A stretch of DNA of 61,839 bases, counting the filler. It is 5 parts of 5 records of this genome, joined end to end, with 100 filler letters (N's around TTAATTAATTAA, not from the genome) between each part and the next. Parts side by side here need not be neighbours in the genome. Positions count along the whole stretch, not along the records: positions 16,915 to 37,586 come from SRR20825010_916; 4 more parts are not named here. One strand, written 5' to 3'. The notes under the pieces were generated by a model. The model did not search any database, was not told the origin of the DNA, and saw only the letters and a list, made by a program, of their open reading frames with translations. Of the stretch, positions 19,829 through 36,120 are shown piece by piece. How positions within the stretch are numbered: position 1 is the stretch's first letter; each line of letters starts with the position of its first letter. The translations under genes and the position numbers were made by a program.

Positions 19829-19838
19829 GCAGGGACCG

Positions 19839-20078
19839 ATGAAAGACGCAACCATACTGAAAACGGGCATCGCAGGCTCGGTAATCGCTGCCATTTGCTG
19901 CTTCACGCCGGTGCTCGTCATAGCACTCGGCGTCGTCGGTCTGTCGGCCTGGCTCGGCTGGATCGACTACGTGCTGTTTCCGACGCTCGCGGTCTTTCTG
20001 GCAATGATGGCCTACGGCCTCTGGCGGCGGCAGCGTGCGGCGGCCTGTTGCTCAAATCAAAGCAAAGCAAACCTCTAA
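19839..20078 (+). CDS. merF: Mercury transporter MerF
   Basis: MKDATILKTGIAGSVIAAICCFTP...DYVLFP with C-terminal CC. Confidence 0.9.
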   Translation: MKDATILKTGIAGSVIAAICCFTPVLVIALGVVGLSAWLGWIDYVLFPTLAVFLAMMAYGLWRRQRAAACCSNQSKANL

Positions 20079-20092
20079 GGAAAAAGCCTGAC

Positions 20093-21523
20093 ATGGCCGA
20101 CTGCAGCACAACCAACAGACAGAAGAACACATACGACCTTGCCGTGATCGGCGCTGGTTCCGCTGGCTTCTCGGCCGCAATCACCGCGGCCGAGGGCGGC
20201 AAGCGCGTCGCTCTGATTGGGCATGGCACCATCGGCGGCACCTGCGTGAACGTCGGCTGCGTGCCCTCGAAAACAATGATACGCGCTGCGGAAGCCCTGC
20301 ATGGTGCCCAGTCGGCGCATCGGTTCCCGGGCCTGCATGGCGAGGCGCATGTCGCCGACTGGGCAGCGCATGTCACCGCCAAGGACGATCTCGTTTCGAC
20401 ACTGCGCAAGAAAAAATATGCCGACCTGCTGCCGGCATACGAGGACGTGACTTACATTGACGAGGGTCACGCGCGGCTCGTCCCCGGCGGAGTCGAGGTC
20501 GCCGGTCGTAAGTTCACGGCACCCAGGGTAATTGTCGCCACCGGCGGGCGCCCGGCCGTGCCCGATATCCCCGGCATCCAAGACGCCCCCACGCTTGACA
20601 GCACATCGCTTCTGAAGTTGGAACAGTTGCCCGACAGCCTGATCTTCCTCGGCGGTGGCTATATCGGTGTCGAACTCGCACAGATGATGGCTCGGATGGG
20701 CGCCCGCGTCACCATCGTCTGCCGCTCGCGCCTCTTGCCGCGCACCGAGCCGGAAGTGTCAGAAGTGCTCACGGCGACTTTGCGCGCTGAGGGTGTCACG
20801 GTTCTTGACGGCGCGACCTACGATACCGCGCGACGCAACGGGGACCGTGCAGTCCTGACCGTGACGGTGGACGGGGCCGAGCTCGATCTGATGGCTGACC
20901 GTCTTGTTCTGACGACGGGACGTGTACCCAACACCGAGGAACTGGGCCTCGCGGAGATAGGCATCGAGACCGACGCACGCGGTGCAATCCGGGTTGGCGA
21001 CGACATGCAGACGACGCAGCCCGGGATCTTCGCTGCGGGTGACGTCACGGACCGCGACCAGTTCGTCTACATGGCCGCTTACGGCGCCAAGCTCGCGTCT
21101 CGCAACGCCGTGCTAGGCGGGGCGGAGCGCTACGACAACGCCGCGATGCCCTGGGTTGTGTTCACCGATCCGCAGGTCGCGGGAGTCGGGTTGACAGAGG
21201 AGCAGGCGCGTGCGGCAGGATATGACGTCATGACGAGCGAGCTGTCGCTCGACAACGTGCCCCGCGCGCTCGCCGCCCGCGACACGCGGGGCCTGATCAA
21301 GCTCGTTGCGGACCAGGCGACCAACCGCCTGCTGGGAGGTGTGATCATGGCGCCGGAGGGAGCGGACAGCATCCAGACGCTCGCGATGGCGCTGAAGGCG
21401 AGGATGACGACCAAGGCGCTTGGTGAGACGATCTTCCCCTATCTCACGACAGTAGAAGGCCTGAAACTCGCTGCGCAAACCTTCGACAAAGACGTAGCGA
21501 AGCTGTCGTGCTGCTCAGGGTGA
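20093..21523 (+). CDS. merA: Mercuric reductase (short form, no NmerA domain)
   Basis: GAGSAG, GGTCVNVGCVPSK, FPYLT and terminal KLSCCSG. Confidence 0.95.
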   Translation: MADCSTTNRQKNTYDLAVIGAGSAGFSAAITAAEGGKRVALIGHGTIGGTCVNVGCVPSKTMIRAAEALHGAQSAHRFPGLHGEAHVADWAAHVTAKDDLVSTLRKKKYADLLPAYEDVTYIDEGHARLVPGGVEVAGRKFTAPRVIVATGGRPAVPDIPGIQDAPTLDSTSLLKLEQLPDSLIFLGGGYIGVELAQMMARMGARVTIVCRSRLLPRTEPEVSEVLTATLRAEGVTVLDGATYDTARRNGDRAVLTVTVDGAELDLMADRLVLTTGRVPNTEELGLAEIGIETDARGAIRVGDDMQTTQPGIFAAGDVTDRDQFVYMAAYGAKLASRNAVLGGAERYDNAAMPWVVFTDPQVAGVGLTEEQARAAGYDVMTSELSLDNVPRALAARDTRGLIKLVADQATNRLLGGVIMAPEGADSIQTLAMALKARMTTKALGETIFPYLTTVEGLKLAAQTFDKDVAKLSCCSG

Positions 21524-21721
21524 GGCAGGGCGGCACGAGCGTTCACCAAGCCAAGCATAGTATAGGGCGTGTACTCATAAACGAGCGAGCGCAGATGACC
21601 GCTTTCGGCGGAACCTTCGAAGACGATCAATCAATCGCGTAGGTCAGCATTGCGGACTTTCCAGACATTGGCCGCATGTCCGCTTCTCATCCGGATAGCC
21701 GAGTAGACCCGTCTATCTCCT

Positions 21722-22960
21722 TCATTCTCTTACGTCGATGCGCACAAGAAACGTGGCTTGACCGATTGCAGCAGCTAGCGCAGTCGCGAATACGATCCAT
21801 GTTCCCAAGGAGGCGACGGCTAAACCTCCGACAAGCGGGAGAACGAAAGCGGGTGCCGTCAGCGCGTTGAAATACCCGCTATAGGCAGGGCGTCGGTCGT
21901 CCGGCGATATCTCCATCAGCAGTCCGATGACCGCAATCGTCAAGCCATTCGCCAATGCGCCGAGAACGAAGAATACGACGAGCAGAACCGGCATGGCTGC
22001 CTCCGGCGGCACGGGTATCAGCAGAAGAACCAGAAGTGCAATTTGCGGAGCCATGCGGGCAACTGCGATCCCGCGCATAAGGCTCAATTTGCCCCGGCTA
22101 TCGCCCCACCAGCCCCATAACGGATTTCCCGCAAGCGCTCCCACGGTCTGGGCACCGAGCAAAAGCGCCACGTTTTCCAAACCTACCCCAAGCCTGTTGG
22201 CCGCGACGATAAAAAATGGAGCGGCAATGAGAACCGCGCCGCCGCACCATTGTGCAAAAACGAAGCGGCGGAACACTGGATCGTCTCGAAACGTCACGGC
22301 CCCCTCTCGCAGATAGGCCGTGAAACTTGTGGCCGCTTTGGTAGGCATTGTCTGTTCGGGCTCTCCCATCGCAGTGAAAATGAAAGACGACACCAACATC
22401 AGGCTCGCCGCGATCCCCAGCACTGCGGAATAGGAGATCGGGAAGTCGAGCGTCCGGAACAGTTTGTCTGCCAACGCGGCGACAAGAAGTGCAACAATCC
22501 CTCCACCGAAGAAGCGGATTGAAAGCATCCGGCTCCGGCGTTCCGACGGAACGGACGGGGCAACAATATCGTTGTAGGGAACGCCGACAATACCACTGAG
22601 GAAGGCATACAGTACCCACAGCACAAGTGTCACTGTACCGAGCGCTGCGTAGGTCCCGCCGAATTTCGCGCCGAGCCAGAGTGCGATTGCGAGCATGGCA
22701 ATGGCCGCCGTTCGTCCAAACGCGCCCACGACATAGAACGGCATGGAGGAAGCACCACGACCGGCGAAATAGCCAACGAAGAGTTGAGGGAGAAGCCAGC
22801 CGAGTCGCAGGATCGTCGAAACCGCTCCGACGGCGACAGCGCTGCCCGTCAGTTGGTAGACCAGCGCCGACATCACTGTTGCGCTGTCCACCGCTGCCGA
22901 ACCAGCCTGGAATGCAGTGCCTGCGCCCGCCACATGCCAAAAGCGGCGGCGGGGGGTCAC
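21722..22960 (-). CDS. MFS transporter
   Basis: About 12 hydrophobic segments; WGWWGDSRG loop; GTG start overlapping the upstream TGA (22957-22960). Confidence 0.8.
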   Translation of the reverse strand: MTPRRRFWHVAGAGTAFQAGSAAVDSATVMSALVYQLTGSAVAVGAVSTILRLGWLLPQLFVGYFAGRGASSMPFYVVGAFGRTAAIAMLAIALWLGAKFGGTYAALGTVTLVLWVLYAFLSGIVGVPYNDIVAPSVPSERRSRMLSIRFFGGGIVALLVAALADKLFRTLDFPISYSAVLGIAASLMLVSSFIFTAMGEPEQTMPTKAATSFTAYLREGAVTFRDDPVFRRFVFAQWCGGAVLIAAPFFIVAANRLGVGLENVALLLGAQTVGALAGNPLWGWWGDSRGKLSLMRGIAVARMAPQIALLVLLLIPVPPEAAMPVLLVVFFVLGALANGLTIAVIGLLMEISPDDRRPAYSGYFNALTAPAFVLPLVGGLAVASLGTWIVFATALAAAIGQATFLVRIDVRE

Positions 22961-23625
22961 GTCCCACTCCAATCCACAGGTTCTACGAACAGGCCAAACC
23001 AAATTGACCAGATACCTAGCCCTATGAAGATCATGCCCAGTAGCCAGCGACGCGGTCGCAACCAGTCCGAAAGCCGATCAAGGGGCCGGGCAAGACCGGG
23101 AACTACGGAGAGCGGTAGGAGTGGGAGCGACAGCGCTAGCGCAAAGACCCCCATCATAAGAAAACCAGTCGTGGCCGACCCGCTGACGGTCGCTGTGCCG
23201 ATAAGCCCAAAAAGGATTGGTGCTGCGCAGGCGGGAATGTTCAGGCCGAACGCCAGTCCCTGAAGCAGCGGGTTGGAGGCAATCTTCCATCGTTCAGGCG
23301 CTAACCCGATGCGGTGGCGCATTATTTTGTCCCATCCCGCGAGTATCGCAAACCCAAAGCCAAGATAAATTGCGCCGAAAGCTAGCCACGCACCGGTCTG
23401 CACCTCGATAAGGCGCTGGCCCAGCACGACGATCAAGCCACCGAATCCGCCCATCACGACGAGCCGTGCCAGAAGAAAGATGAAAGCTGCGCTGATCCGC
23501 TGACCCATCGGGCGGATTCTCTGGCCTCCCAGAAAAAGCATATGTGCGCCGATAGTGCAGGGTTCGATAAAGCCAAGTAACCCAAGGCCGAATGCAAGCA
23601 GCAGCGTTTGATCAGTGATCTCCAT
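22957..23625 (-). CDS. CcdA/DsbD-beta-like membrane redox protein
   Basis: About 6 TM segments with the Cys pair FIEPCTIG and IPACAAPIL. Confidence 0.75.
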   Translation of the reverse strand: MEITDQTLLLAFGLGLLGFIEPCTIGAHMLFLGGQRIRPMGQRISAAFIFLLARLVVMGGFGGLIVVLGQRLIEVQTGAWLAFGAIYLGFGFAILAGWDKIMRHRIGLAPERWKIASNPLLQGLAFGLNIPACAAPILFGLIGTATVSGSATTGFLMMGVFALALSLPLLPLSVVPGLARPLDRLSDWLRPRRWLLGMIFIGLGIWSIWFGLFVEPVDWSGT

Positions 23626-23658
23626 AGGTGCCCTTAAAATCATTAATCTTGGAGCTTG

Positions 23659-23689
23659 ATGCTAGACCTTCCACCAGCAGGAGGCTCAA
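23659..23689 (-). promoter_or_regulatory. CueR-type promoter upstream of ccdA-like and MFS genes
   Basis: Minus strand TTGAGC-19 bp-TAGCAT containing AGCCTCC-N7-GGAAGGT. Confidence 0.75.
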
Positions 23690-23789
23690 GCAACCTTTCC
23701 ATGAGCTGACCGTGGCTGCATTGCAGAAATCATGCATTTCGGGCGCGAAGCGACCGGTCGATCTAACGGACCAAGCCGCAGTGCCTGGG

Positions 23790-24611
23790 GGCAAAGCAGA
23801 CATTGAAGTTTGGCATGCCGGCGTGATTCAAGCTCCGAAGGGGAGTCTTGAACAAGGGACATGCCCTCTCCGACGCCGAATAGCGGTTGATAGCGCCAAT
23901 CCTTCCTTGCATGCCGCGAAGCGTCCCGCGTGTGGATGACAGGCGTGTCCTGAACGGCATTTTCTGGATCTTGAGGTCGGGAGCGCCATGGCGTATCTAC
24001 CCGAGAGCTGGCTCCTACACCACCTGCTACAATCGCTTCGTGCTTTGGCGTTACGCAGGCGTTTGGGACCGTATCCTGACTGCCATATCGCATCGGGACG
24101 ATGCCGAGGTGCAGATGATTGAAGCACGATAGGCCGCGCTCATCAGCACGCAAGTTGCATCCCGAATAGTGCCAGCGAAGGCTTTGGACGTTCGCGTGGA
24201 GGGCTGACGACCAAAATCCACGCCGTTGTCGATGCGAACGGACTGCCGCTCCAAGTTATGATTACTGGCGGTCAGCAGCATCACAGTCTGATGGCATGTG
24301 CTCTACTTGAAGGCCTACCGAGCGGCGGAATGGTTCTCGCCGACGAGGCTTAGGACGCGACCGAGATAAGAACGTTCGTGAGTTCACGTGGATGCTGGGC
24401 GAACATCCCGCCCCGTCGGAACCGGCGCGATCCGATCTGCTTCAGTCCGTATCTCTTGCGTCATCGAAATCACGTTGAGCGGTTCTTCAACAGGATGAAG
24501 CACTGTCGGCGCATCGCTACGCGATATGAGAAACACGCAGCCAACTTCCTTGCCTTCGTCAAGCTCGCTGCCATCCGGGATTGGCTACGCGTTAATGAGT
24601 CCACGGCCTAG
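23790..24611 (+). mobile_element. Degenerate IS5-family (IS427-like) element; transposase pseudogene
   Basis: LSDAE*RLIAPILP...RVDDRRVLNGIFW, GRSRGGLTTKIH, LADEA* and RNHVERFFNRMKHCRRIATRYEK with in-frame stops. Right end GAGTCCACGGCCTAG; left end approximate. Confidence 0.85.
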
Positions 24612-24655
24612 TCATAAGAGAATTGGGCAACAGAAGCCTCCCGGGCTTTGCTACC

Positions 24656-24686
24656 TTGACCTTCCCCCTACAGGAACCCCTATGTG
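24656..24686 (+). promoter_or_regulatory. CueR-type promoter of copA
   Basis: TTGACC-19 bp-TATGTG containing ACCTTCC-N7-GGAACCC. Confidence 0.75.
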
Positions 24687-24719
24687 TGAAAAACAACACG
24701 AGATGGAAGGCCGGTATCA

Positions 24720-27233
24720 ATGGATGCGCAGCATATCAAGATTGCTATTGAGGGCATGACATGCGCGTCTTGCGTGGGGCGGGTCGAAAGAACTTTGGCG
24801 GATGTGAATGGGGTGACGAATGCCTCGGTCAACCTAGCCAATGGGGCCGCGCAATTGGATATCACGGAGGGTGTCGATTTAAATCAGGTCGCTACAGCAC
24901 TTGGAGGCATTGGCTATCCGCTGCGGACCCGGACCGTGAAACTGACCCTTACATCGATGTCCTGTGCCTCTTGCGTTGGCCGGGTGGATCGCGCTCTCGG
25001 CGCATTGTCCGGCGTTCTGGACGTCAACGTAAACCTCGCCGCAGAGAGCGCAGTGGTGACGGTTGCCGAGGGAGTCGTGAACCCACAAGATCTTTTGACC
25101 GCGACGCGCGCGGCTGGTTTTCCGGCGGAGCTGGCAAAGACGAGCGAGGGCATCTCGGCAGCGGCACGCAAGGAGGAAGATGCTCGGCTGATCTCCCGCA
25201 AGACCATGATCGCCGCCCTGCTGGCGCTGCCGGTCTTCGTGATCGAAATGGGCAGTCATTTGATTCCTGGGGTGCATGAGCTGATAACTGGCGCGATCGG
25301 GCAGCAGGTAAGCTGGTATTTCCAGTTCGCGCTGACAACGATCATCCTCGGGGGACCGGGGTGGGTTTTCTTTGCCAAGGGCATTCCCGCGCTGCTGCGA
25401 GGGGCGCCGGATATGAACAGCCTTGTCGCGGTCGGCACTGGTGCTGCTTGGGCTTATTCGGTGGTCGCTACATTCCTGCCTGGCCTTCTGCCCGAGGCTG
25501 TGCGCGCGGTTTATTTCGAAGCGGCGGCGGTGATCGTCGTGCTGATCCTTCTAGGCAGGTGGCTTGAGGCGCGCGCCAAGGGTCGGACCGGGGCAGCTAT
25601 CGAGCGGCTGTTGGGGCTTCAGGTCCGCACGGCCCGCGTGATCCGCGATGGAGAGGCGGAGGAGGTCGAGATTGACGGTATTAGCGTTGGCGACATCCTG
25701 CTAGTGCGCCCAGGCGAGCGCATCGCGCTGGACGGTGAGGTTTTGAGCGGCGAGGCATATGTCGATGAGAGCATGATCACCGGTGAACCCGTACCGGTGG
25801 CCAAGGCCGAGGGCGACGCGGTAACGGGCGGCACGGTCAATGGATCGGGTAGCCTGCACATTCGCACGATGAGGGTGGGCACGGATACGACCCTAGCGCA
25901 GATCATCCGAATGGTCGAAGAGGCGCAGGGCGGCAAGTTGCCGATTCAGGGGTTGGTCGACCGGATCACGTCGTGGTTCGTGCCGGCCGTCATGGCCGTG
26001 GCCGCGATCACCGTAGCGATATGGCTGACGGTCGGGCCGGACCACGACGTGACGCTGGCGCTGGTGGCCGGGGTATCGGTGCTGATCATTGCCTGCCCCT
26101 GCGCTATGGGACTAGCCACGCCAACCTCGATCATGGTGGGTACCGGGCGCGCGGCGGAAATGGGAGTGCTGTTTCGCAAGGGCGACGCGCTGCAGGCGCT
26201 GGCGTCCGTCGATGTGGTGGCGCTAGACAAGACAGGCACAGTGACCGAAGGGCGTCCTGAAATGACCGATTTGGTGCTGGCAGACGGGTTTGAGCACGAT
26301 GAAGTCTTGTCGTTGATCGCTGCGGTTGAGAGCCAGTCCGAACATCCCGTTGCCAAGGCAATCACCCGCGCAGCGCAGGTTGAGGGGGCCGCGCGCGCCA
26401 AGGTGGAGGAGTTCGAATCGATCACCGGCTATGGTGTGCGTGCCCGCGTATCGGGACGTGACGTGCTGGTTGGGGCGGACCGCTTGATGGCGCGCGAGGA
26501 GCTGGATCCCGGTAACCTTGCTAGGGCAGAGGCCGATCTCGCTGCAAAGGGCCGCACCTCGCTTTACGCTGCAATCGACGGGCGAGTAGCAGCGGTGATC
26601 GCCGTGGCGGACCCGGTCAAACCGTCGAGTGCCAGGGCGATCCGCGCACTGCATGCGGCGGGATTGCGCGTGACGATGGTCACCGGCGACAAGCGCGAAA
26701 CGGCGGAGGCCATCGCTCGGGAGGTCGGGATAGACACGGTAATCGCGGGCGTGCTGCCGGATGGCAAGATTGCGGCGCTCGACAGTCTACGCGAGGGCGG
26801 CGCGCGCGTGACCTTCGTTGGCGACGGGATCAACGATGCGCCCGCGCTGGCCCATGCGGATGTCGGTATCGCGATCGGGACCGGGACCGACATCGCCATC
26901 GAATCCGCCGATGTCGTGCTGATGTCGGGTGATCTGCGAGGCATCGTGAACGCATTTCAGGTCTCCCGCCATACGATGCGCAACATCCGGCAGAACCTTT
27001 TCTGGGCCTTCGGCTACAACACAGCGTTGATCCCAGTGGCGGCGGGCGTGCTTTACCCGGCTTTCGGGCAGCTATTGTCGCCGGTTCTGGCGGCCGGGGC
27101 GATGGCCCTAAGCTCGGTCTTCGTTCTGTCGAACGCGCTGCGCCTGCGCCGCTTGCGCCCTGTCATGGACGAGCGGGCGGCCTCGACTGGACCGCGCGAG
27201 ATGGCGGTCCCACAAGAGACCGCGTCATGCTGA
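24720..27233 (+). CDS. copA: Cu(I)-exporting P1B-1 ATPase
   Basis: Two HMA domains (M(T/S)CASC), TGE, CPC, DKTGT, HP, GDGIND, YN and MALSS motifs. Confidence 0.95.
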
Positions 27234-27328
27234 TCCGGGCGCGCGTTTGCCGCCGGCCGAGGATGACACGGGGGCCCATCACAAAAAAGTGGCTGGATAA
27301 ATGCCTTCTGCGAAGCCATCTTCTAAAC

Positions 27329-27673
27329 ATGTCGCAGGTCCGAGCCATCTTTCTTTCAGCCTTAGTGGCGCTTCTTGCCCTAGGCACGGTCACGCACGCG
27401 GTGAGTGCGAACGCGATGGCGTTGGACATCGCGATGTCTGAGGGCGGCGAGATGTCGATGCCCGACTGTCAGGGTTGCCCCGAGGACGGCGACAGCGATG
27501 CGAACACGCTATGCGACCTTGTTTGTACGGCGCCTGTCACGGCCGTCTTGAAAGGCGTGGACATCGCGCAGCCCGCAGCACCATTGCTGCGTCAGGACCG
27601 CCTTCTCGGCATGACGACTCCTCGCGGGCTGCGCGCGCCGCCGGACCCATTTCCTCCTCGACCCTTCATCTGA
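27329..27673 (+). CDS. CutF/CopL/CruR-like Cys- and Pro-rich upstream protein (114 aa)
   Basis: Signal peptide, CQGC, CDLVC and C-terminal LRAPPDPFPPRPFI; directly upstream of a multicopper oxidase. Confidence 0.75.
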   Translation: MSQVRAIFLSALVALLALGTVTHAVSANAMALDIAMSEGGEMSMPDCQGCPEDGDSDANTLCDLVCTAPVTAVLKGVDIAQPAAPLLRQDRLLGMTTPRGLRAPPDPFPPRPFI

Positions 27674-27808
27674 TCCGACGACACACCTCCCGCGAGGGCG
27701 GGTGTGCGACCGTCGCGTCTTCTCTGAGTCCCTGACGGACGCCAGGAGACGCGCAGCCCTTGCGCCATGTGCGCGAGACCAACGGCATGCATCAGATGAG
27801 AGAGATAC

Positions 27809-29245
27809 ATGAGATCTGCATTATCACCGACGCTATCGCGCCGCGGCTTTCTGGCTGGCAGCGCCGCGTCCGGCACAGCATTTGCTCTGCGCCCCGCATG
27901 GGCTGACACGCCCGGTATCTTCACCCTGCGCGCGGCACCGGGTCGGGCGCGTTTGGCGCCCTACCCCTGGGGCGAGAGCGACATCTGGTGCTATGGCGGC
28001 ACCGTGCCCGGCCCCGAGATCCGGGTGCGCCAAGGCGCGCGGCTCCGCATCGTGGTCGACAACGCACTTGCCGAAGACACGACGGTTCACTGGCACGGAC
28101 TGCGGGTGCCGAACGCCATGGACGGCGTGCCGCACCTGACGCAACCCCCGATCGTGCCGGGCGAGAGCTTCGTCTACGAGTTCGACGCGGTCGATGCCGG
28201 CACGTTCTGGTATCACCCGCACCAGCGAAGCTTCGAGCAGGTCGGTCGAGGCCTCTACGGCCCGCTGATTGTCGAGGAAGCGACCCCGCCGCGCGTGGAC
28301 CGTGAACTGGTCTGGGTGCTCGATGACTGGCGCCTGACGCAGGATGCATCAATCGCTGCGGATTTCGGCGACTTCCACGATATGAGCCACGGCGGACGGC
28401 TAGGCAATACGGTGACGATCAACGGTCGGGTCCCCGACGCGGTGGCAGTACGAGCGGGGGAACGGATCCGGCTCCGCCTGATCAATTCTGCCAATGCTCG
28501 CATTTTCGCGCTCGATTTTGGTAATCTTGCGCCGCAAGTGATCGCGCTCGACGGCCAACCGGTCGCGCCGCACTCGGTGCCCGGCGGGCGGCTGGTCCTC
28601 GGTCCGGCCATGCGCGCAGACCTGATGATCGACGTAACCACCGAGCCGGGTGCGACGGTCTCCGTCATCGACCGGTTCTTCGCAAAGGACGCCTATGCCC
28701 TCGTCGATCTGACGGTAGCGGAGACGCCGCTCCGCGACGCGCAGCCCGACTGGTCCATGGATTTGGCCCCGAACCACCTCCCCGAACCAAACATCGGGCG
28801 CGCCCATCGTCATGAGGTGACCTTCACTGGAGGCATGATGGGCGGGATGGTCGAGCGCAAGATGGGCCTTTCTAACGGACGCGGCATGAGGGGTATGATG
28901 AACCGAATGCACGATAGCGGCATCTGGTTTGTCAACGGCGTGGCGGCCGAAGGCCATATCCTCGACCCGATGCTGACGCTGGAGCGCGATGCCTCCCACG
29001 TTATCGCCATGACCAACGCCACGGCGTTCCACCACCCGATCCACCTGCACGGCCATTCCTTCCGAGTGCTCAGCCGCGACGGCACGCCCACCGCACATCG
29101 CGAATGGCAGGACACCGTGCTGATGGCCCCGCGCGAACGGGTCGAGATCGCGTTCGTCGCCGACAATCCTGGCGACTGGATGTTTCACTGCCACATCCTC
29201 GAGCATCAGGCGGGCGGGATGATGGGGGTGATCCGTGTGGCCTGA
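27809..29245 (+). CDS. Tat-exported multicopper oxidase (CutO/CueO-like)
   Basis: SRRGFL Tat motif; HWHG, WYHPH, HPIHLHGH and HCHILEH...M copper ligands; Met-rich loop. Confidence 0.95.
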   Translation: MRSALSPTLSRRGFLAGSAASGTAFALRPAWADTPGIFTLRAAPGRARLAPYPWGESDIWCYGGTVPGPEIRVRQGARLRIVVDNALAEDTTVHWHGLRVPNAMDGVPHLTQPPIVPGESFVYEFDAVDAGTFWYHPHQRSFEQVGRGLYGPLIVEEATPPRVDRELVWVLDDWRLTQDASIAADFGDFHDMSHGGRLGNTVTINGRVPDAVAVRAGERIRLRLINSANARIFALDFGNLAPQVIALDGQPVAPHSVPGGRLVLGPAMRADLMIDVTTEPGATVSVIDRFFAKDAYALVDLTVAETPLRDAQPDWSMDLAPNHLPEPNIGRAHRHEVTFTGGMMGGMVERKMGLSNGRGMRGMMNRMHDSGIWFVNGVAAEGHILDPMLTLERDASHVIAMTNATAFHHPIHLHGHSFRVLSRDGTPTAHREWQDTVLMAPRERVEIAFVADNPGDWMFHCHILEHQAGGMMGVIRVA

Positions 29246-29255
29246 GGGGAGAGCG

Positions 29256-30194
29256 ATGATGAACGAGCACTCAAGGACCGGATCTCCGCTCGGGCGACGC
29301 CAAGCATTGGCCATGCTGGGCGGTGTGGTCCTCTCTGGGCTGTCTCCGGCGCGGTGGGCGCATGCCGGGGGCGCCGTGGCCTCCGCACTGGCTTTTGACG
29401 GCGGTGCGCTTGTCGTCGCGGGCGCGCAGGTGTGGCGGCATGACTTGTCAGGTGGCGCTTCGGCAACATTTCCCACGCCACGCGCCCATATCCGGGCGCT
29501 TGCTTGTCACCCCGCGCGGACCGGGCGGCTCTTCGCGGCGCTGGAGGGCGGCGGTCTCGATCGGTCAGACGATGGCGGCCGGACATGGCACCCGGCATCG
29601 GGAGGCCTGCCGATGCCGCAGGTGACGGCGGTTGCCACCGCGGCGGGCGCTCCGGACACGGTCTATGCCGCCGTCGCGGGCGACGGGCTATGGCGCAGCG
29701 AAGACGCGGGGGAAAACTGGTCCTTCGTGATGGACCGTCCCTGGATCGCCGATGCTGAGCGCGAGGTGCTGACGATCGCCTCTGTCAATCTCGCCTCAGG
29801 CATGGGCGGCATCTGGATCTACGCCGGCACCGAGCGCGGCTTGACCCGCGTTCCCGACTGCTTCTGCCGTTGGCAGGACGTGGTGGCGGGGAACGCGATG
29901 GACGCGCTGGTCGCGGGAACGCCGCCCGCGCCAGAGACTCCGCTGCCCGAGGGCGAGCCCGTATTGGCTCTGACCTCGGCAATGGCTGCCCCAGAACGGC
30001 TCGCTGCGGCGCTGCCCTCGGGACTTTGGGCGTCCTCCGATGGCGGGGTGAACTGGGCGCATAGATCGGGCCACGTCGCGCCCGCGCTCGCCGCTCACCC
30101 GACCGAGCCATCCCGGATCGCCGCCATCACCGCAGACGAGGTGATCCTCAGTCATGACAGCGGGGCCTCATGGGCTGCGCTCCCGACCACGTGA
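29256..30194 (+). CDS. Tat-exported BNR/Asp-box beta-propeller protein
   Basis: GRRQAL Tat-like signal; four S.D.G..W Asp boxes; internal PDCFCRW. Confidence 0.75.
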   Translation: MMNEHSRTGSPLGRRQALAMLGGVVLSGLSPARWAHAGGAVASALAFDGGALVVAGAQVWRHDLSGGASATFPTPRAHIRALACHPARTGRLFAALEGGGLDRSDDGGRTWHPASGGLPMPQVTAVATAAGAPDTVYAAVAGDGLWRSEDAGENWSFVMDRPWIADAEREVLTIASVNLASGMGGIWIYAGTERGLTRVPDCFCRWQDVVAGNAMDALVAGTPPAPETPLPEGEPVLALTSAMAAPERLAAALPSGLWASSDGGVNWAHRSGHVAPALAAHPTEPSRIAAITADEVILSHDSGASWAALPTT

Positions 30195-30205
30195 AAGGAC
30201 ATCAC

Positions 30206-30625
30206 ATGAAACGTCTCGCCCTGGCCATTTTCCTGGCTTTAGGAACCCCGGCGCTCGCAGCCGAGCCCGTGACCATTTGGCGCAGTCCCAGCTGCGGCTG
30301 CTGCGACGCTTATGCCGAATACCTGCGGGCGGAAGGCTTCGAGGTCACCGTGATCGATGATCATGACTTCGTGGCCCGCTCTGTCGCCGCGGGCGTCCCC
30401 AAGCAGGGGGTGGGCTGCCACCTTGCCAAGATCGACGGCTATGTCGTCAGCGGTCTGGTTCCCGCCGAGCTCATCGAGCGGCTGCTTGAGGAACGTCCCG
30501 AAATCACTGGCATTACGCTGCCCGGCATGCCCGCCAACGCACCGGGGATGGCGCCTGAGAAGACCGGCACGCTACGCACTTACTCATTCGGACCCAAAGG
30601 AGTGACGGTCTATGCCGATGAATGA
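30206..30625 (+). CDS. CopG/CutG-like DUF411 periplasmic copper protein
   Basis: Signal peptide, SPSCGCC, GCH and PGMP motifs. Confidence 0.85.
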   Translation: MKRLALAIFLALGTPALAAEPVTIWRSPSCGCCDAYAEYLRAEGFEVTVIDDHDFVARSVAAGVPKQGVGCHLAKIDGYVVSGLVPAELIERLLEERPEITGITLPGMPANAPGMAPEKTGTLRTYSFGPKGVTVYADE

Positions 30626-30721
30626 CATCACACTCACCCCGGAGACAGGCTCGGGCGCTGAATTCTTACACTACCTCGCCGGGTTGGCTGCATGGCGCGA
30701 TGATAACTGGGAGGCAGGCTG

Positions 30722-30862
30722 ATGGGCGACTGTATGAGCCAGATGATGAGCGGGTCCATGATGGGCATGATGCTGGGTGGCGGACTCGTCCTGTTGCTGC
30801 TGATCGTGGTGCTGGTCCTCGCGACGGCAGCGCTGATCAGATATCTGCGGAGGCCCGAATGA
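30722..30862 (+). CDS. Small Met-rich single-TM protein (46 aa), absent from the ORF track
   Basis: MGDCMSQMMSGSMMGMMLGGGLVLLLLIVVLVLATAALIRYLRRPE; GGAGG RBS; ATGA overlap with the next gene. Confidence 0.75.
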   Translation: MGDCMSQMMSGSMMGMMLGGGLVLLLLIVVLVLATAALIRYLRRPE

Positions 30863-31344
30863 CGCGCCGGGCTCCCATCGCAGCGGCCGTCGCTGTTGTG
30901 GCGGCGATCGGTGCGGCAGGCTGGAACGCGGCGGCTCAACAAGCGACGGACGTCGAGAGCCTGACTTTCCTCGGCAAGACGGTCACCGCGGCGCAGTTAG
31001 TGCTTGGGCAGGAGGATTACGCCGCCAATTGCGCCTCCTGCCACGGGGCAAACCTGGAAGGCCAGCCCGACTGGCGCAGGCGGAACGAGAATGGTCGTAT
31101 GCCCGCGCCTCCGCACGATGCGAACGGCCATACCTGGCACCATGCCGACCGCCAGTTGTTCACCATAACCAAGCTCGGTGTGAGCGCCATCGTGCCTGGC
31201 TACGAGAGCGACATGCCCGCCTTCGAGGGCATCCTTTCCGATGACGAAATCGTCGCAGTCCTAGCCTTCATCAAGAGCACCTGGCCCGAGCGCGAGCGCG
31301 GATTCCAGGCCGAAGTGACGGCGAATGACGAGGGCGGGTCATGA
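30859..31344 (+). CDS. Monoheme cytochrome c
   Basis: Signal peptide, CASCH, GHTWHH and distal Met in SDMPAF. Confidence 0.9.
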   Translation: MTRRAPIAAAVAVVAAIGAAGWNAAAQQATDVESLTFLGKTVTAAQLVLGQEDYAANCASCHGANLEGQPDWRRRNENGRMPAPPHDANGHTWHHADRQLFTITKLGVSAIVPGYESDMPAFEGILSDDEIVAVLAFIKSTWPERERGFQAEVTANDEGGS

Positions 31345-31919
31345 GCGACGGAGCCCGTCATGTCGCTCGCCCTGTGGGCGGAAGGTTGCTCGCGATAATC
31401 CCCCTCGCCATCGCTGCGCTGCTCTTCGCCGCCTTATACTGGGGGCTCTGGAACAAGGACGACCGGCTGCCCTCGACGCTGATCGGGCGATCAGTGCCAG
31501 ATTTCGCCCTGCCGCCGATCGAAGGGCGCGACAACGGTCTTTCGTCGGAGGACCTGCGCGGCCAGGTCTCCATCGTGAACGTCTGGGCTTCCTGGTGCGT
31601 GCCCTGTCGCGTGGAGATGCCCCTCCTAGTCGAACTGGCCCAGACCGGGACTGTTCCGATCCACGGGATCAATTACAAGGACGCTCCCGACGCGGCGCTC
31701 GGATTTCTCGCGGAGCTCGGCGACCCCTATACCCGGACCGGCGCCGACCGGAACGGGCGCGTCTCCATCGACTGGGGTGTTTACGGCCTGCCCGAGACCT
31801 TCGTTATCGATGGCGAAGGACGTATCGCCTATAAGCATGTTGGCGCCTTTGACCGCCGCGCGCTGGAGGACGAGATCTTGCCCGTCGTCCGCCGGTTGCA
31901 GGCCGAGGACGGATTATGA
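31341..31919 (+). CDS. DsbE/CcmG thiol:disulfide oxidoreductase
   Basis: TM anchor, NVWASWCVPC and GVYGLPETF. Confidence 0.92.
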   Translation: MSDGARHVARPVGGRLLAIIPLAIAALLFAALYWGLWNKDDRLPSTLIGRSVPDFALPPIEGRDNGLSSEDLRGQVSIVNVWASWCVPCRVEMPLLVELAQTGTVPIHGINYKDAPDAALGFLAELGDPYTRTGADRNGRVSIDWGVYGLPETFVIDGEGRIAYKHVGAFDRRALEDEILPVVRRLQAEDGL

Positions 31920-32437
31920 GGCGGCGTGACCTGCTTGCCGGTGCGCTGGCATTTGCCGCCACGCCCGCCGCCGCACGACCATTGATGCCGTTGCACGAGA
32001 CCCCGCGCGAGATGCTCTCGATGCCCTTCGTGGATGGCGACGGGCGGGACCTGACGCTGGCGGATTTTCGGGGCCGCGTTGTTTTATTGAACGTTTGGGC
32101 CACTTGGTGCGCGCCCTGCCGCGAGGAGATGCCGACACTTGACCGTCTGCAGGCGAAGCTTGGCGGTGACGATTTCCACGTCCTTCCCCTCTCCATTGAC
32201 CGTGCGGGGCTTGGGCCGGTGCTGCGCTTTTACAACGAGATTGGCATCCTACATTTGGGCCAGTACCTCGCCGAAGACATACGCGCGATGCGCGCCCTTG
32301 CCGTCATTGGCCTGCCCACGACTCTGCTAATCGACCGGCAGGGGCTCGAACGCGGTCGCCTGATGGGTCCCGCCGAATGGGACAGCGCAGAGGCGATCGC
32401 ACAATTCCAGACCATCATCGCTGAAAGGAACAGATGA
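31916..32437 (+). CDS. TlpA-family disulfide reductase
   Basis: MRRRDLL Tat-like signal, NVWATWCAPC.EEMP and GLPTT. Confidence 0.9.
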   Translation: MRRRDLLAGALAFAATPAAARPLMPLHETPREMLSMPFVDGDGRDLTLADFRGRVVLLNVWATWCAPCREEMPTLDRLQAKLGGDDFHVLPLSIDRAGLGPVLRFYNEIGILHLGQYLAEDIRAMRALAVIGLPTTLLIDRQGLERGRLMGPAEWDSAEAIAQFQTIIAERNR

Positions 32438-32715
32438 TCATGCCTAACATATCTTATGACCAGGACACCATCCGACCGAGGGGTTTCTCGATTCCATTCG
32501 GACGCCGCGGCCTCATCCTCAGCGCTATGGCGCTGATAGGAGCAGGCTTGTGGCTCAATTGGGGCTGGGTGGCCGCGATCGGCGCTGCCCCCCTGATCCT
32601 TGCCGTCGCCCCCTGCGCCGCCATGTGCGGATTGGGTCTCTGCATGATGGGCGGCTCGAAATCCTGCGCCACCCAAAAGAATTCGGACGCTGGTCCGGAA
32701 ACTGCGAGAGAGTGA
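32434..32715 (+). CDS. Small Cys/Met-rich membrane protein (DUF2933-like)
   Basis: Two TM segments followed by PCAAMCGLGLCMMGG; ATGA coupling. Confidence 0.65.
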   Translation: MIMPNISYDQDTIRPRGFSIPFGRRGLILSAMALIGAGLWLNWGWVAAIGAAPLILAVAPCAAMCGLGLCMMGGSKSCATQKNSDAGPETARE

Positions 32716-32743
32716 TCCTCGCCCCACCAAAAGGAGCAATCCA

Positions 32744-33028
32744 ATGAAAACGATTCAGAAACACGCATTAGCCGCCGTTCTTGGCCTCGGGCTCACCACC
32801 TCTGCGGCTCTGGCGCAGGCCAATGGCCCCGACATGCCCAAGGAGCCGATGCAGGGCATGATGGGCGGCGATATGCAGGGCATGATGCAGATGATGCAGG
32901 CCATGGGTCCGATGATGGAGGCCTGCACCGACATGATGCAGCAGATGGCGCATCATCAACCCGCCCATCCCGACAGTGCGACGCCCCCGGCCGATCAGGA
33001 CACGACCACAGCGCCCGAGGGCGGCTGA
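32744..33028 (+). CDS. Met-rich periplasmic protein
   Basis: AAGGAG RBS, signal peptide, MQGMMGGDMQGMMQMMQAM...C.DMMQQMAHH. Confidence 0.75.
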   Translation: MKTIQKHALAAVLGLGLTTSAALAQANGPDMPKEPMQGMMGGDMQGMMQMMQAMGPMMEACTDMMQQMAHHQPAHPDSATPPADQDTTTAPEGG

Positions 33029-33086
33029 CATCAAGACGCCCGGGCTGCGCCGCCGCCCGGGCGACCACCCTGAAGGACACGATTCG

Positions 33087-33743
33087 ATGCACACCACGTC
33101 CAACTCAGATGTCTTGCGACGTATCCGGCGCCTGCTCTGGGCTGCCGTTGCTATATCCGTTCTGGCTTTCGGCGGCGCGGCTCTCTGGCGCGCCCAGACC
33201 CCTTCCGATCTCCCGGCGCCGCGTGTAACGGGCGAGGCCGCGATCCTGAACGCTTATACGCTGACCGAACATACCGGTCGCACGGTGACGGCAGACGCCT
33301 ATGCCGGGCGCTGGCAACTGGTCTTCTTTGGCTTCACTTTCTGCCCTGACATTTGTCCGACGACACTTGCCTATATGGCCAGCATCATGGATTGGCTGGG
33401 ACCGGAGGCAGACCGCGTCGCGCCGATATTCGTTACCGTGGATCCGGCACGCGATACGGTCGACGTGATGGCTGACTATGTTGCGGCGTTCCACCCCCGT
33501 CTGATCGGCCTGACTGGAACAGAAGCACAAACCGCCGAGGCTGCTGCCAACTTCCTGGTCTGGTACGAGCGGGCCGAGGATGCCGCCGCGCCAGACGGCT
33601 ATCTCATGGCGCATTCCGGATATATCTACCTGATGCGTCCCGATGGCCGATTTGAAACCATCTTCCGGGAGGGTGATCAGCCGCCGAAGAAACTCGCCGA
33701 AGAGATTTCCGTGCGCATCAAGAAGGACGACAGAGCCGAATGA
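33087..33743 (+). CDS. SCO1/SenC copper chaperone
   Basis: FFGFTFCPDICP, TVDPARD and MAHS motifs. Confidence 0.92.
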   Translation: MHTTSNSDVLRRIRRLLWAAVAISVLAFGGAALWRAQTPSDLPAPRVTGEAAILNAYTLTEHTGRTVTADAYAGRWQLVFFGFTFCPDICPTTLAYMASIMDWLGPEADRVAPIFVTVDPARDTVDVMADYVAAFHPRLIGLTGTEAQTAEAAANFLVWYERAEDAAAPDGYLMAHSGYIYLMRPDGRFETIFREGDQPPKKLAEEISVRIKKDDRAE

Positions 33744-34177
33744 AGCTTTTTCTTGCAGCGGCCTCTCTTGCCGTATTCCCCATAGCAGTATTGGCGGAGG
33801 TGGTCGTGACCGACCCCTGGGCGCGTGCCAGCATTCTCGCTTCCCGCCCGGGAGCCGCCTACCTGACCCTCGTCAGCGACATGGACGACCGGCTTTTGTC
33901 GGCCACAACACCGGCAGCCGGTCAGGTAATGATGCACGCCTCCGAGACGGAGACCAACGCCATAACGCGCATGATCCATCTCGATGCACTCGACCTTCGG
34001 GCGGGGCAGACGGTGCGGTTCGCACCCGGCGGCATGCATCTGATGCTGATGGGGCTCACGGCCAAACTCGAGGAAGGCGGACAGTTTCCGCTGACCCTCA
34101 GCTTCGAGCACGCAGGTGACATTACCGTCGAGGTGCCGATCCTCGGCGTCGCATTCACAGCGCCGGAGGCAAATTGA
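33740..34177 (+). CDS. PCu(A)C copper chaperone
   Basis: W.RAS..., MH...RM and PGGMHLML motifs. Confidence 0.9.
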   Translation: MKLFLAAASLAVFPIAVLAEVVVTDPWARASILASRPGAAYLTLVSDMDDRLLSATTPAAGQVMMHASETETNAITRMIHLDALDLRAGQTVRFAPGGMHLMLMGLTAKLEEGGQFPLTLSFEHAGDITVEVPILGVAFTAPEAN

Positions 34178-34791
34178 TGAGGCTCCTCACACTTGTCGCC
34201 GCGTTGCTGATTGCGGGCATCGCACCGGTTGACGCGCATCATCCTGGCGAACGACTCGACGAAGTGATGGCCAAGAAGGAGCCGGGCTTCGAGCCAACCG
34301 ACCTACGCCGCCTGCCGCCGCTGGCGCTGACCGGAGCCGAGGGCGCCAGCCTCAATCTGGTGGATTTCGCTAACCGTATCGTCGTGCTCAGCTTTGCACC
34401 GGAGGGCTGCGGTGCGCCCTGCGCCAATCAACAGGCACTTTTGCAGGGGGTTCAGGAAGCGGTTAACATCACACCGATGCGCGACATGGTCCTGTTCGTG
34501 ACAATGGGCAGAGAGGCGGCGGATGATCCGGGTTGGCAAGCCGGAAACTGGCGTCGTGCGACGCCCACCGATGGCACGGTGGCGGAGACCGCCAGGGCAT
34601 TCGCCGCACTCTCCGCGCACGGGACGGATGCGCCCATGGTCCATATACTCGACCAAGGCGGGCGACATGCGGGCATCTTTCATGGGCCGGGCTTCGGGCG
34701 TATCAACACAGTGCTGTACATCAACGGCTTGACGAACGCGCGACCGCCCGAACCCGGGCTGCTGGACCGGTTGCTCGGAGCGTTCCGGTGA
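34174..34791 (+). CDS. Divergent SCO-like thioredoxin-fold periplasmic protein
   Basis: Signal peptide then HHPG; VVLSF...CGAPC; translationally coupled. Confidence 0.65.
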   Translation: MMRLLTLVAALLIAGIAPVDAHHPGERLDEVMAKKEPGFEPTDLRRLPPLALTGAEGASLNLVDFANRIVVLSFAPEGCGAPCANQQALLQGVQEAVNITPMRDMVLFVTMGREAADDPGWQAGNWRRATPTDGTVAETARAFAALSAHGTDAPMVHILDQGGRHAGIFHGPGFGRINTVLYINGLTNARPPEPGLLDRLLGAFR

Positions 34792-35285
34792 CAGCGCGGT
34801 CGGAGACAGAGATGGTGGCGGGGCGTGACTGGCTAGCCGCGTTGCGCCGGTATTTCGCTTTCACCGCAGTCGCGCATCTGATCTGGGAGTTCGCACATCT
34901 GCCGCTCTACACGATCTGGCTAACTGGAACGACGGGTGAGCTTGTGTTCGCTGCGGTCCACTGCACTGGCGGAGACATCCTGATCGCGCTCAGCGCAGTC
35001 ATGCTGTCCCTGTTCCTTTTCGGTAAGGGAGCATGGCCCGCGGAACGCAGAATTCCTGTCGTTGCGGGCGCGGTCGTCTTCGGACTCGTTTATACGATTT
35101 TCAGTGAGTGGTTGAACATCGAAATACGGGAAGCCTGGGCCTATCGCGACCTGATGCCGGTGATCCCGGTTCTCGGTGCCGGGCTCAGCCCGGTGCTGCA
35201 ATGGATCGTTGTCCCTCTCACCGGTTTCAGTCTTGCAAGGGTGCTCCCGACCGTCCGCCGAAGTCAGGGGACCGTCAATGTTTGA
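34788..35285 (+). CDS. Hypothetical membrane protein of copper clusters
   Basis: GTGA overlap start; about 4 TM segments; WEFAHLPLY, HCTGGD and SEWLN...W.Y...MP. Confidence 0.7.
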   Translation: MTARSETEMVAGRDWLAALRRYFAFTAVAHLIWEFAHLPLYTIWLTGTTGELVFAAVHCTGGDILIALSAVMLSLFLFGKGAWPAERRIPVVAGAVVFGLVYTIFSEWLNIEIREAWAYRDLMPVIPVLGAGLSPVLQWIVVPLTGFSLARVLPTVRRSQGTVNV

Positions 35286-36015
35286 ACTGTCCGGGATCGG
35301 ACTGATAGCTGCGTTTCTTGCCGGCGCAGTTTCCTTTGTCTCGCCCTGTGTGCTGCCGTTGGTGCCCGGCTATATCTCCTATGTCGCCGGGCATACGGCG
35401 AGTTCGATGGATATCGAGCCGTCGGATCGTCGACGACAAGCTGTTAGGATGGGCCTTTACTTCGTCGTCGGGTTTTCCACAATATTCATGGTGCTAGGCG
35501 CAAGCGCGACCGCGATCGGCCAGGTGCTGCTGAGTTACCGGTATGAACTCAACTTTGTGGGCGGTGCTATCGTAATCTTGTTCGGTCTGTTCATGATTGG
35601 CATGGCAAAGATCACAATGATGCAACGAGATATCCGTTTCCACCTGTCCGTTCCGGGTGGAAGGCCTCTTTCTGCTTATGTCCTCGGCCTCGCCTTCGGC
35701 TTTGGTTGGACTCCCTGCATCGGGCCCATCCTCGGTGCCATCCTGACAGCCAGCGCCGCATCGGCTACCGTCCCGGAAGGCGTCGCCCTGCTTGCCATCT
35801 ATTCTGCCGGATTGGGTATCCCGTTCCTCCTTGCTGCCGGCTTTACAGATCGTCTGACACGGCGGTTGCGCACCATTGGCCAGATTGGTCGGCGGCTGCA
35901 TCAAGTGGCGGGACTGGTCATGGTCGCGATGGGGATAGCCATGATGACAGGGCAGCTTTCGGTGCTGTCCTATTGGCTCCTCGATGCTTTTCCGGCCCTC
36001 GGCCGCATCGGGTAG
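35278..36015 (+). CDS. ccdA: CcdA cytochrome c biogenesis/thiol-reduction protein
   Basis: SFVSPCVLPLVPGY and FGWTPCIGPILG. Confidence 0.92.
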   Translation: MFELSGIGLIAAFLAGAVSFVSPCVLPLVPGYISYVAGHTASSMDIEPSDRRRQAVRMGLYFVVGFSTIFMVLGASATAIGQVLLSYRYELNFVGGAIVILFGLFMIGMAKITMMQRDIRFHLSVPGGRPLSAYVLGLAFGFGWTPCIGPILGAILTASAASATVPEGVALLAIYSAGLGIPFLLAAGFTDRLTRRLRTIGQIGRRLHQVAGLVMVAMGIAMMTGQLSVLSYWLLDAFPALGRIG

Positions 36016-36038
36016 CTGCCGCATTCAAATACGGATAC

Positions 36039-36069
36039 TTGACTCCGTACTATAGCACGGACCTTTAGC
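36039..36069 (+). promoter_or_regulatory. Orphan MerR-type operator
   Basis: TTGACT followed by TCCGTAC-TATA-GCACGGA; the -10 element is weak. Confidence 0.6.
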
Positions 36070-36120
36070 CATTCTCCGAGCCAATGTGAAGAAGCGGTGC
36101 ACAATCAGTTGTGCCGCAAA

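Follow-up and report, generated by a model that had tools for sequence, protein, structure and literature searches.

The closest described counterpart of the locus discussed here is CutF of Rhodobacter capsulatus, a protein of 118 amino acids (aa) with a Sec signal, a CxxxC motif and two further cysteines, which ends in PEPEGPPPRL (PMC8456105; PMC9973294; 10.1101/2025.02.05.636593) and has four cysteines in its mature form (10.1101/2025.02.05.636593). The cutF gene lies 40 bp before cutO, and the intergenic stretch carries a stem-loop with an anti-Shine-Dalgarno (anti-SD) sequence, CTTC (PMC8456105; PMC9973294). As set out in passages of these sources, copper bound to the exported CutF nascent chain prolongs a stall at PPP that is sensitive to elongation factor P (EF-P), the stem-loop melts and cutO is translated, an effect exerted only in cis (PMC9973294; 10.1101/2025.02.05.636593); the CxxxC motif lies 45 aa from the proline motif, and the region of the stem-loop (cutF-SL) also affects mRNA stability in R. 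capsulatus (PMC9973294). Thousands of CutF-like proteins have been listed by the rules of fewer than 150 aa, a signal peptide, PP in the last 15 residues and a next gene on the same strand, and a passage of the same paper states that stalling can probably open a stem-loop only where the intergenic region is short, long-spacer cases being left open (PMC9973294). The other described system to be considered is CruR (Bp2923, a DUF2946 protein) of Bordetella pertussis, which carries CxxC and a RAPP motif three residues from its end, works through Rho-dependent termination with an arrest that copper relieves, is independent of signal peptide and EF-P, and precedes a gene for a TonB-dependent transporter (PMC9426467); RAPP-type arrest of CruR in vitro occurs with the third codon in the P-site (PMC12992588). 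The subject of this analysis is a small upstream open reading frame (uORF) and the leader RNA that separates it from a multicopper oxidase gene, found in a stretch of 61,839 nucleotides (hereafter the window, in which all positions are counted) that joins five parts of one genome's records with filler letters between them; the locus lies in the part from SRR20825010_916 (16,915 to 37,586). This locus probably acts as a switch of CutF type that turns translation of the copper oxidase ON.

The uORF comprises the following elements, all on the plus strand.

27329-27673 (+): CutF-like upstream ORF, 114 aa, stop TGA at 27671-27673, from the translation
27329-27400 (+): signal-peptide-like N-terminus, residues 1-24, MSQVRAIFLSALVALLALGTVTHA followed by VS, read from the sequence
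27467-27478 (+): CQGC (C47-C50), from the translation and the alignment of close homologs
27512-27526 (+): CDLVC (C62-C66), from the translation and the same alignment
27626-27661 (+): arrest-like tail G100-R111 (GLRAPPDPFPPR), from conservation and codon counts

The product is shorter than 150 aa, with 114 aa from the start common to most homologs and 148 aa from an upstream ATG. As read from the sequence, its N-terminus opens with MSQVR, a basic n-region, which leads into about 17 hydrophobic residues and then THA followed by VS; its C-terminal tail is RAPPDPFPPRPFI, or over a longer stretch GLRAPPDPFPPRPFI, in each case up to the stop, with PP pairs at residues 104-105 and 109-110. The length, the C-terminal PP, the central cysteine motif and the same-strand next gene all agree with the published CutF-like rules, that next gene being a Pfam-confirmed multicopper oxidase 135 nt from the uORF (the rules allow an intergenic distance below 1000 nt). 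The AlphaFold2 model of the protein (predicted template modelling score, pTM, 0.28) contains helices at residues 2-38 and 56-77 only and no globular fold. In the ESM Atlas, unnamed clusters rank first, and the nearest named families, DUF6660 and DUF2946 at 0.95, serve as leads only. The window protein is without a match to DUF2946 (PF11162) at E<=0.01, and the gathering score of that family is not reached.

A word-indexed protein search yielded 58 homologs, all unnamed or "hypothetical" and none with a precomputed Pfam domain. Their sources are Nisaea, Roseovarius, Pseudophaeobacter, Maritimibacter, Pseudorhodobacter and a large number of metagenomes. When 40 of the 58 were aligned, residues C50, C62, C66, P98, D106, P107, P109, P110 and R111 proved invariant; conservation reaches at least 90% in GLRAPPDPF and at the final Ile, and the HAVSAN segment of the putative signal peptide is conserved as well. 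A profile search of the word-indexed proteins gave 48 hits, mainly these close relatives again. Run against 1.84 billion cluster representatives, a profile made from this alignment gave 603 matches at E<=1e-3, of which 151 reach E<=1e-10; all counts of distant relatives given here and below rest on 148 representatives from the best 150 of these 603 matches. CxxC followed by CxxxC is present in 141 of the 148, and PP[R/K/Q] within the last nine residues likewise in 141 (PPR in 126 of them), always one to six residues from the end, the tail after PP-R being five residues long in 84 and three in 49. A wider alignment of 149 sequences has C47 in all of them and C50 in at least 90%. The distance from C66 to the second proline of PPR is 44 residues in the window; over 140 distant relatives and the query, 141 sequences in all, the median is 42. 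The double motif PPxPxPP[R/K/Q] is found in 80 of the 148 representatives, TGPP in 40 and RAPP in seven; RAPP, which ends nine residues from the C-terminus of the window product, is shared by 34 of the 40 close relatives and is not conserved more widely, its arginine position reading R in 16, K in two, Q in three and L in one of 22 sequences (the window and 21 loci). Matches to DUF2946 stay weak and below threshold, in five of the 40 close relatives at E<=10 (best 0.13) and in seven of the 149 representatives at E<=1 (best 0.0079), and those to DUF6153 are commoner and still below threshold, in 18 of 40 and 40 of 149 (best 4.6e-4). The earlier sequence-only reading had seen in this protein a hybrid of CutF and CruR; with both cysteine motifs and the terminal PP[R/K/Q] each in 141 of 148 distant relatives, the combination of CxxC, CxxxC and PP..PPR is the normal architecture of a large family and not a special hybrid.

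The end of the uORF is tied to the oxidase start by a predicted long-range helix, P1, which encloses three hairpins.

27665-27674 (+): 5' arm of P1, comprising the last base pair of codon F113, then codon I114 with the stop and a single base beyond, from repeats and folds
27677-27714 (+): hairpin P2, GACG...CGTC enclosing CACACC/GGTGTG, from minimum free energy (MFE) folds
27715-27752 (+): hairpin P3 (GCGTCTTCT...AGGAGACGC), from MFE folds and repeat I6
27753-27790 (+): hairpin P4, from MFE folds, with the weakest support
27791-27800 (+): 3' arm of P1 (ATCAGATGAG), which includes an SD-like GAG, from repeats and folds
27798-27811 (+): purine tract GAGAGAGA (27798-27805), spacer and oxidase ATG (27809-27811)

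The sequence-only reading had pointed to a 9-mer at the stop codon complementary to the ribosome-binding region of the oxidase, with two hairpins inside, and all of these were recovered by a repeat search. Repeat I5 pairs TCATCTGAT (27666-27674) with ATCAGATGA (27791-27799) over 9 nt that are 100% complementary and 116 nt apart, its 3' arm sharing two bases with the purine tract, and the inner hairpins appear as CACACC/GGTGTG (I10) and CGCGTCTTCT/AGGAGACGCG (I6). Among 2000 dinucleotide shuffles of the 251-nt region, 319 also contain a perfect inverted repeat of at least 9 bp, so that the 9-bp repeat alone is not significant, and its 9-mer is found a third time in the window, by chance. Its placement is much rarer: when the intergenic region was shuffled 20000 times, only 2 shuffles had the complement of the stop-codon 9-mer within the 25 nt that precede the ATG. 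When 27640-27830 (191 nt) is folded, the MFE and centroid structures alike have P1 closing the three hairpins, at -72.4 kcal/mol (z -2.78), and one of 200 shuffles folds as stably; in a 301-nt context the P1 pairs have probabilities of 0.83-1.0. Rfam contains no family that matches 27200-27900 at E<=10. An alternative fold through the repeats I2 (27626-27635/27750-27759) and I3 (27620-27628/27689-27697), of 10 and 9 bp, would join the PRGLRA codons to the leader; it was dropped as specific to the window or due to chance, both repeats being absent from all 20 other sequences checked.

The leader RNA was compared among relatives in a MAFFT alignment of 20 leaders that was not fitted to any structure, the structure scored being that of the individual MFE folds projected onto the alignment. 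P1 is present, with hairpins enclosed, in the MFE structure of all 19 distinct leaders folded individually. Seven of its eight core pairs are formed in every row and the remaining one in 19 of 20, an additional C/U-G pair at the first P1 position is kept in all 20, and the T27674-A27791 pair, the ninth of the 9-mer, is kept in only 14; the conserved core is thus (C/U)UCAUCUGA / UCAGAUGAG, shifted by one base with respect to the 9-mer repeat. Covariation of the 9-bp helix among homologs, which the sequence-only reading had named as a check, is not seen in P1; eight pairs are conserved in 19 or 20 rows. On the 3' side, TCAGATGAG in the P1 arm is invariant in 20 of 20 leaders, and the last 22 nt before the oxidase ATG are invariant or nearly so. 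Over the whole structure, standard pairs occupy 83.8% of cells, compared with 31-43% when the 3' partners are slid by one to three columns, and changes on both sides of a pair are seen in 52 cells, compared with 22.9 +/- 3.4 in shuffles, of which 0 of 500 reach 52. These changes are found in the inner hairpins: seven of 15 pairs of P3 have changes on both sides, as do two pairs at the tip of P2, in eight and ten of 20 rows, and one of the five modelled pairs of P4 is compensatory; L015 and L017 have lost part of P4 and L018 all of it. No conservation is seen in the loops and junctions of the inner hairpins. The leader of L018 is only 89 nt long and has a single inner hairpin, yet it retains a P1 of 11 bp; as P1 persists in L018, L015 and L017 despite the loss of hairpin parts, P1 is the constant element and the hairpins are dispensable or variable. 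When the best duplex partner of the oxidase start region was sought over the whole uORF and leader, it proved to be the arm at the stop codon in 17 of 21 sequences (the exceptions are L003, L005, L017 and L020). The GAG in the 3' arm, 8 nt before the AUG, is the only SD-like triplet in most relatives. A CutF-like uORF before a multicopper oxidase, with a conserved helix that ties the uORF end to the SD-like region, is, in silico, the part of the sequence-only reading that stands, together with its account of a 114-aa ORF with a signal-peptide-like N-terminus, CQGC, CDLVC and a proline-rich tail, which the translation bears out.

Codon counts in 22 sequences (the window and 21 loci), set beside usage in 11 neighbouring genes, distinguish the tail peptide from the nucleotides of P1. 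Along PPDPFPP (codons -11 to -5) the amino acids are kept in 21-22 of 22 sequences with two to four synonymous codons in use per position, and R111 is likewise kept in 21-22; judged by this pattern, the uORF tail is under selection as a peptide. The codons within P1 are free of synonymous change (CTC in 18 and TTC in four, ATC in 22 of 22, TGA in 21 of 22), in contrast to Leu at -14, for which five different codons are in use. The arginine after PP, R111, is encoded by CGA in 20 of 22 sequences, CGA amounting to 8.7% of arginine codons in the 11 neighbouring genes, and the proline codons before it (27653-27661) are often the rare CCA or CCT. Both may reflect selection for slow decoding, a lead only, as the sequences are related.

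A ribosome covers some 15 nt on either side of its P-site, and this footprint was assumed in a thermodynamic masking model of the leader. A ribosome stalled at RAPP, with its P-site at 27638, stops 27-28 nt short of P1, and masking it leaves P1 intact at 0.83-1.0. P1 disappears when the mask stands for a ribosome that has P110 in its P-site (27656) or that is at the stop: the mean unpaired probability of the 3' arm then rises from 0.03 to 0.40-0.43, and that of the AUG from 0.37 to 0.84 (PPR site masked) or 0.94 (stop site masked). As the RAPP mask spares P1 and the PPR mask removes it, only the second proline pair is placed to act on the helix; most simply, there would be one arrest site, PP-R, with GLRAPPDPFPP as the segment in the tunnel. 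RAPP, one of the two arrest-type motifs of the sequence-only reading, is not the site from which the helix could be opened; its arginine is variable and it is present in seven of 148 distant relatives. That reading is partly supported: it was right in kind, with an arrest uORF of CutF type and an SD-hiding helix, and wrong in some details.

The proposed switch borrows export, copper binding, the pause and its position, and the direction of regulation from the published work on CutF. The 114-aa ORF would be translated and its product exported co-translationally by means of the Sec-type signal, and the four cysteines of CxxC and CxxxC would reach the periplasmic side while GLRAPPDPFPP is still in the ribosomal tunnel. 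Binding of copper would lengthen a pause with P110 (27656-27658) in the P-site and the rare CGA codon of R111 (27659-27661) in the A-site, four codons before the stop. The leading edge of the paused ribosome would cover the 5' arm of P1 (27665-27674), that is, the last codons and the stop; as the pairing of this arm with 27791-27800 would hide the SD-like GAG by the oxidase ATG, opening of P1 would leave initiation free. In the absence of copper, termination would be quick, P1 would re-form and the oxidase level would be low.

Around the uORF, the window contains the following genes.

24720-27233 (+): CopA-type P1B ATPase, directly upstream, given as context only (Pfam, ORF coordinates)
27809-29245 (+): three-domain multicopper oxidase of 478 aa with a twin-arginine translocation (Tat) signal (Pfam Cu-oxidase_3/_2/Cu-oxidase, TIGR01409)
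29235-36015 (+): about 12 further co-directional genes with small gaps or overlaps (ORF coordinates, Pfam)

The best solved relatives of the oxidase are the laccase/copper oxidase chains 4f7k, 6vox and 6vow. The genes behind it encode BNR/propeller-like, DUF411 (CopG/CutG-like), cytochrome c, DsbE, TlpA-like, SCO1/SenC, PCuAC and DsbD_TM proteins, several small ORFs and others; the sequence-only reading had the helix open translation of an operon of about 13 genes, a putative unit, and it is only the oxidase start that it would gate directly. One scan of genome_contigs gave 22 loci, and a full-length oxidase homolog (78-100% identity) follows the uORF in 19 of them. Among these 19 oxidase loci and L021, L017 stands apart with an intergenic length of 108 nt; the other 19 fall at 127-138 nt. 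The upstream copA is not conserved among relatives, its place being taken by merA in L020, L021 and the plasmid CP104102.1 (L023). On the complete Phaeobacter plasmid CP104102.1 the same gene order stands behind merTPFA with a spacer of 138 nt, and the small gene is annotated "hypothetical protein"; the order mer, uORF, oxidase and so on to DsbD_TM thus also exists on a mobilizable plasmid. In the window, the copper cluster is part of a heavy-metal island (19716-36447) with MerF-like and MerA genes at 19716-21523, and transposase/integrase fragments lie at 24378-24611 and 36025-36447.

Several loci depart from this arrangement. The oxidase gene is missing in L018 (3337-3673), L020 (3313-4380) and L021 (3340-4428), where the uORF, P1 and the start region are directly followed by a homolog of the propeller-like gene at 29235-30194 of the window; in L021 a match to the Tat signal of the oxidase persists over the first 36 residues. 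In these three loci the control module is retained after loss of its usual target. L017 (2995-3474) has ACG at the conserved start, a stop changed from TGA to CGA that adds seven residues, a deletion in P4 and a full-length oxidase, and it looks as if this copy is decaying. The conserved uORF start position is also without ATG in L010 (AAG) and L019 (CTG). Elsewhere in the window, a 240-aa ORF with a C-terminal cytochrome c domain (30622-31344) corresponds on the Phaeobacter plasmid to two small hypothetical genes and a cytochrome c of 160 aa, and its long N-terminal part is probably not one gene with the cytochrome. A 458-aa ORF on the minus strand (37635-39011) ends in a run of X, at a stretch of N (masked or gap) near 37640-37690.

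Two promoter-like arrangements lie in this region. At 27294-27331, TGGATA in the window (TGGACA in relatives) is followed by 17 nt, a TATxxx-like hexamer (CATCTT in the window), 6 nt and the uORF ATG, and this layout of TGGACA and hexamer, about 45 nt before the uORF start, is conserved in L003-L022 with no SD visible. If these hexamers were -35 and -10 elements, the uORF would have a promoter of its own and a transcript that is leaderless or almost so, which would fit an upstream gene that varies between loci (copA or merA). A scan of 24200-27900 with consensus promoters and terminators found no promoter, and no terminator in the leader, which makes an intrinsic attenuator unlikely. At 24656-24686, 34 nt before the copA start, TTGACC and TATGTG are separated by a 19-nt spacer with an imperfect CCTTCC...GGAACC dyad, which is the layout of MerR/CueR-type copper promoters.

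A number of observations weigh against a copper-responsive switch of CutF type. None of the 11 modelled pairs of P1 is compensatory and seven never vary; the support for P1 is thus one of invariance, for which coding or SD constraints could partly account, and the slid control favours the structure in any case, since the structure derives from MFE folds of the same sequences. The codon argument is weakened by the neighbouring genes, in which ATC makes up 74% of isoleucine codons and TGA is the usual stop. L017 combines a C-A mismatch in P1 with a read-through stop. The SD itself is weak (GAG), and in the window the GAGAGA of the purine tract offers a further one outside P1. In the masking model, a terminating ribosome at the stop always opens P1, so that stalling may be unneeded. 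At curated thresholds, neither Pfam nor NCBIfam has a model that the uORF protein matches; R. capsulatus CutF is not among the best 150 of the 603 profile matches, and none of the 148 representatives fetched ends in PPPRL. Assignment of the protein to the CutF-like group thus rests on the rule set and the context and not on a measured alignment with CutF.

The effect of the terminating ribosome leads directly to the explanation that comes next in likelihood, and which is nevertheless unlikely: P1, by placing the stop beside the SD, would be an element of constitutive translational coupling or of mRNA stability, the hairpins would protect the mRNA, the small protein would be a periplasmic copper binder and no sensor, and copper control would be transcriptional. 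The MerR-type promoter layout before copA makes copper-dependent transcription plausible, and the cutF-SL region has an effect on mRNA stability, as a passage on R. capsulatus reports (PMC9973294). Coupling of this kind needs neither a conserved peptide over the last 15 residues, in which synonymous change is free, nor a fixed position of PP-R, as seen in 141 of 148 distant relatives, and the AlphaFold2 model (pTM 0.28) is not a globular fold.

Both remaining explanations are clearly less probable. Regulation in the opposite sense, as in CruR, is improbable; an arrest at RAPP in low copper would keep Rho off the leader, and copper would bring about Rho-dependent termination and turn the operon OFF. 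CxxC and RAPP are indeed hallmarks of DUF2946/CruR, the intergenic region of 135 nt is comparable to the 162 bp of B. pertussis (PMC9426467), and the RAPP arrest of CruR is demonstrated in vitro (PMC12992588). Here, however, the arginine of RAPP is K, Q or L in six of 22 sequences and RAPP occurs in seven of 148 distant relatives; it lies nine and not three residues from the end, with a CxxC-to-RAPP spacing of 52 compared with 46 in CruR. The leader is almost fully base-paired, which would make it a poor site for Rho loading, and the downstream genes serve detoxification and maturation, for which repression by copper makes little sense. Least probable of all, and very improbable in itself, is a leader of about 125 nt that itself binds a ligand, a protein or a small RNA in the manner of a riboswitch, with the uORF as an incidental neighbour. 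The conserved multi-helix junction, the covariation in P2 and P3 and the near-invariance of the 22 nt before the ATG would agree with such a leader; the unconserved loops and junctions of the inner hairpins, the want of an Rfam match at E<=10 and the strong conservation of the uORF peptide do not, and L018, which is without two of the three hairpins, and L015 and L017, which are without part of P4, all keep P1 and the uORF.

With the CutF-type switch as the preferred reading, the principle is already published for CutF, and the RNA architecture here differs. It is possible, though doubtful, that the locus represents a distinct and widespread class of metal-sensing leaders outside curated Pfam, with at least 603 representative clusters and three features that set it apart. 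The proposed arrest module (PPDPxPP-R, with a selected slow CGA in the A-site) would be fixed three or five codons before the stop, and this fixed distance would allow the stop codon itself to form the anti-SD strand. The second proposed feature is a long-range helix around a multi-hairpin junction, through which a ribosome stalled at the uORF end would switch on a start about 125 nt downstream. Thirdly, the uORF may be leaderless, its boxes ending 6 nt before the ATG, and the two proline pairs may act as successive checkpoints for the two cysteine motifs. The passages of PMC9973294 that deal with spacers give intergenic lengths only and do not describe a conserved leader structure, and among the listed titles of papers on DUF2946 none points to one, the supplementary CutF-like lists of PMC9973294 being outside the scope. 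To the question of long spacers left open in those passages (PMC9973294), the present family suggests a simple answer, namely that the stop codon pairs with the distant SD and the spacer is folded away as hairpins. The locus moreover lends itself to mutation and, being small and conserved, could serve as a model of how a nascent chain senses copper across the membrane; its putative control module moves with a mobile mercury/copper resistance island and is present on a Roseobacter plasmid, too. Should the switch reading be wrong, an ordinary CutF-like gene beside an oxidase would still be left.

In comparison with cutFOG, the likeness is one of layout and spacing. Both loci place a small protein (118 aa with a Sec signal in CutF, 114 aa with a putative one here) before a Tat multicopper oxidase, with DUF411/CopG further on; in both, the mature part has four cysteines and CxxxC lies about 45 residues before a proline motif followed by arginine (PPPRL before the stop in CutF, PPRPFI before the stop here), and a helix that hides the oxidase SD, here in silico, is within reach of a ribosome at that motif. 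The differences concern mainly the RNA. The intergenic region of cutFOG measures 40 bp and has one stem-loop, whereas that of the present loci is about three times longer (127-138 nt); the anti-SD is intergenic in cutFOG and consists here of the last two uORF codons and the stop, in a helix that spans 116 nt and closes a three-hairpin junction with covariation. In the mature CutF protein the upstream cysteine pair is C5/C12, and here it is CxxC; the tail here also has a second PP (PPDPxPP). CruR shares CxxC, a long intergenic region (162 bp in B. pertussis), a position at the head of a copper-related operon and a translation arrest, which is here proposed; it differs in its opposite sense (OFF), in a RAPP three residues from the end compared with nine here, and in belonging to DUF2946, the threshold of which the window protein does not reach. 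CopL of Xanthomonas/Stenotrophomonas falls into a different sequence cluster, cluster 29 of the sequence similarity network (SSN) described in PMC9973294. SecM, VemP and MifM likewise use an exported nascent chain, and its arrest close to the C-terminus opens a helix in which the SD of the following gene is hidden; they sense secretion or insertion activity and not a metal, and their arrest sequences are unrelated to the one proposed here.

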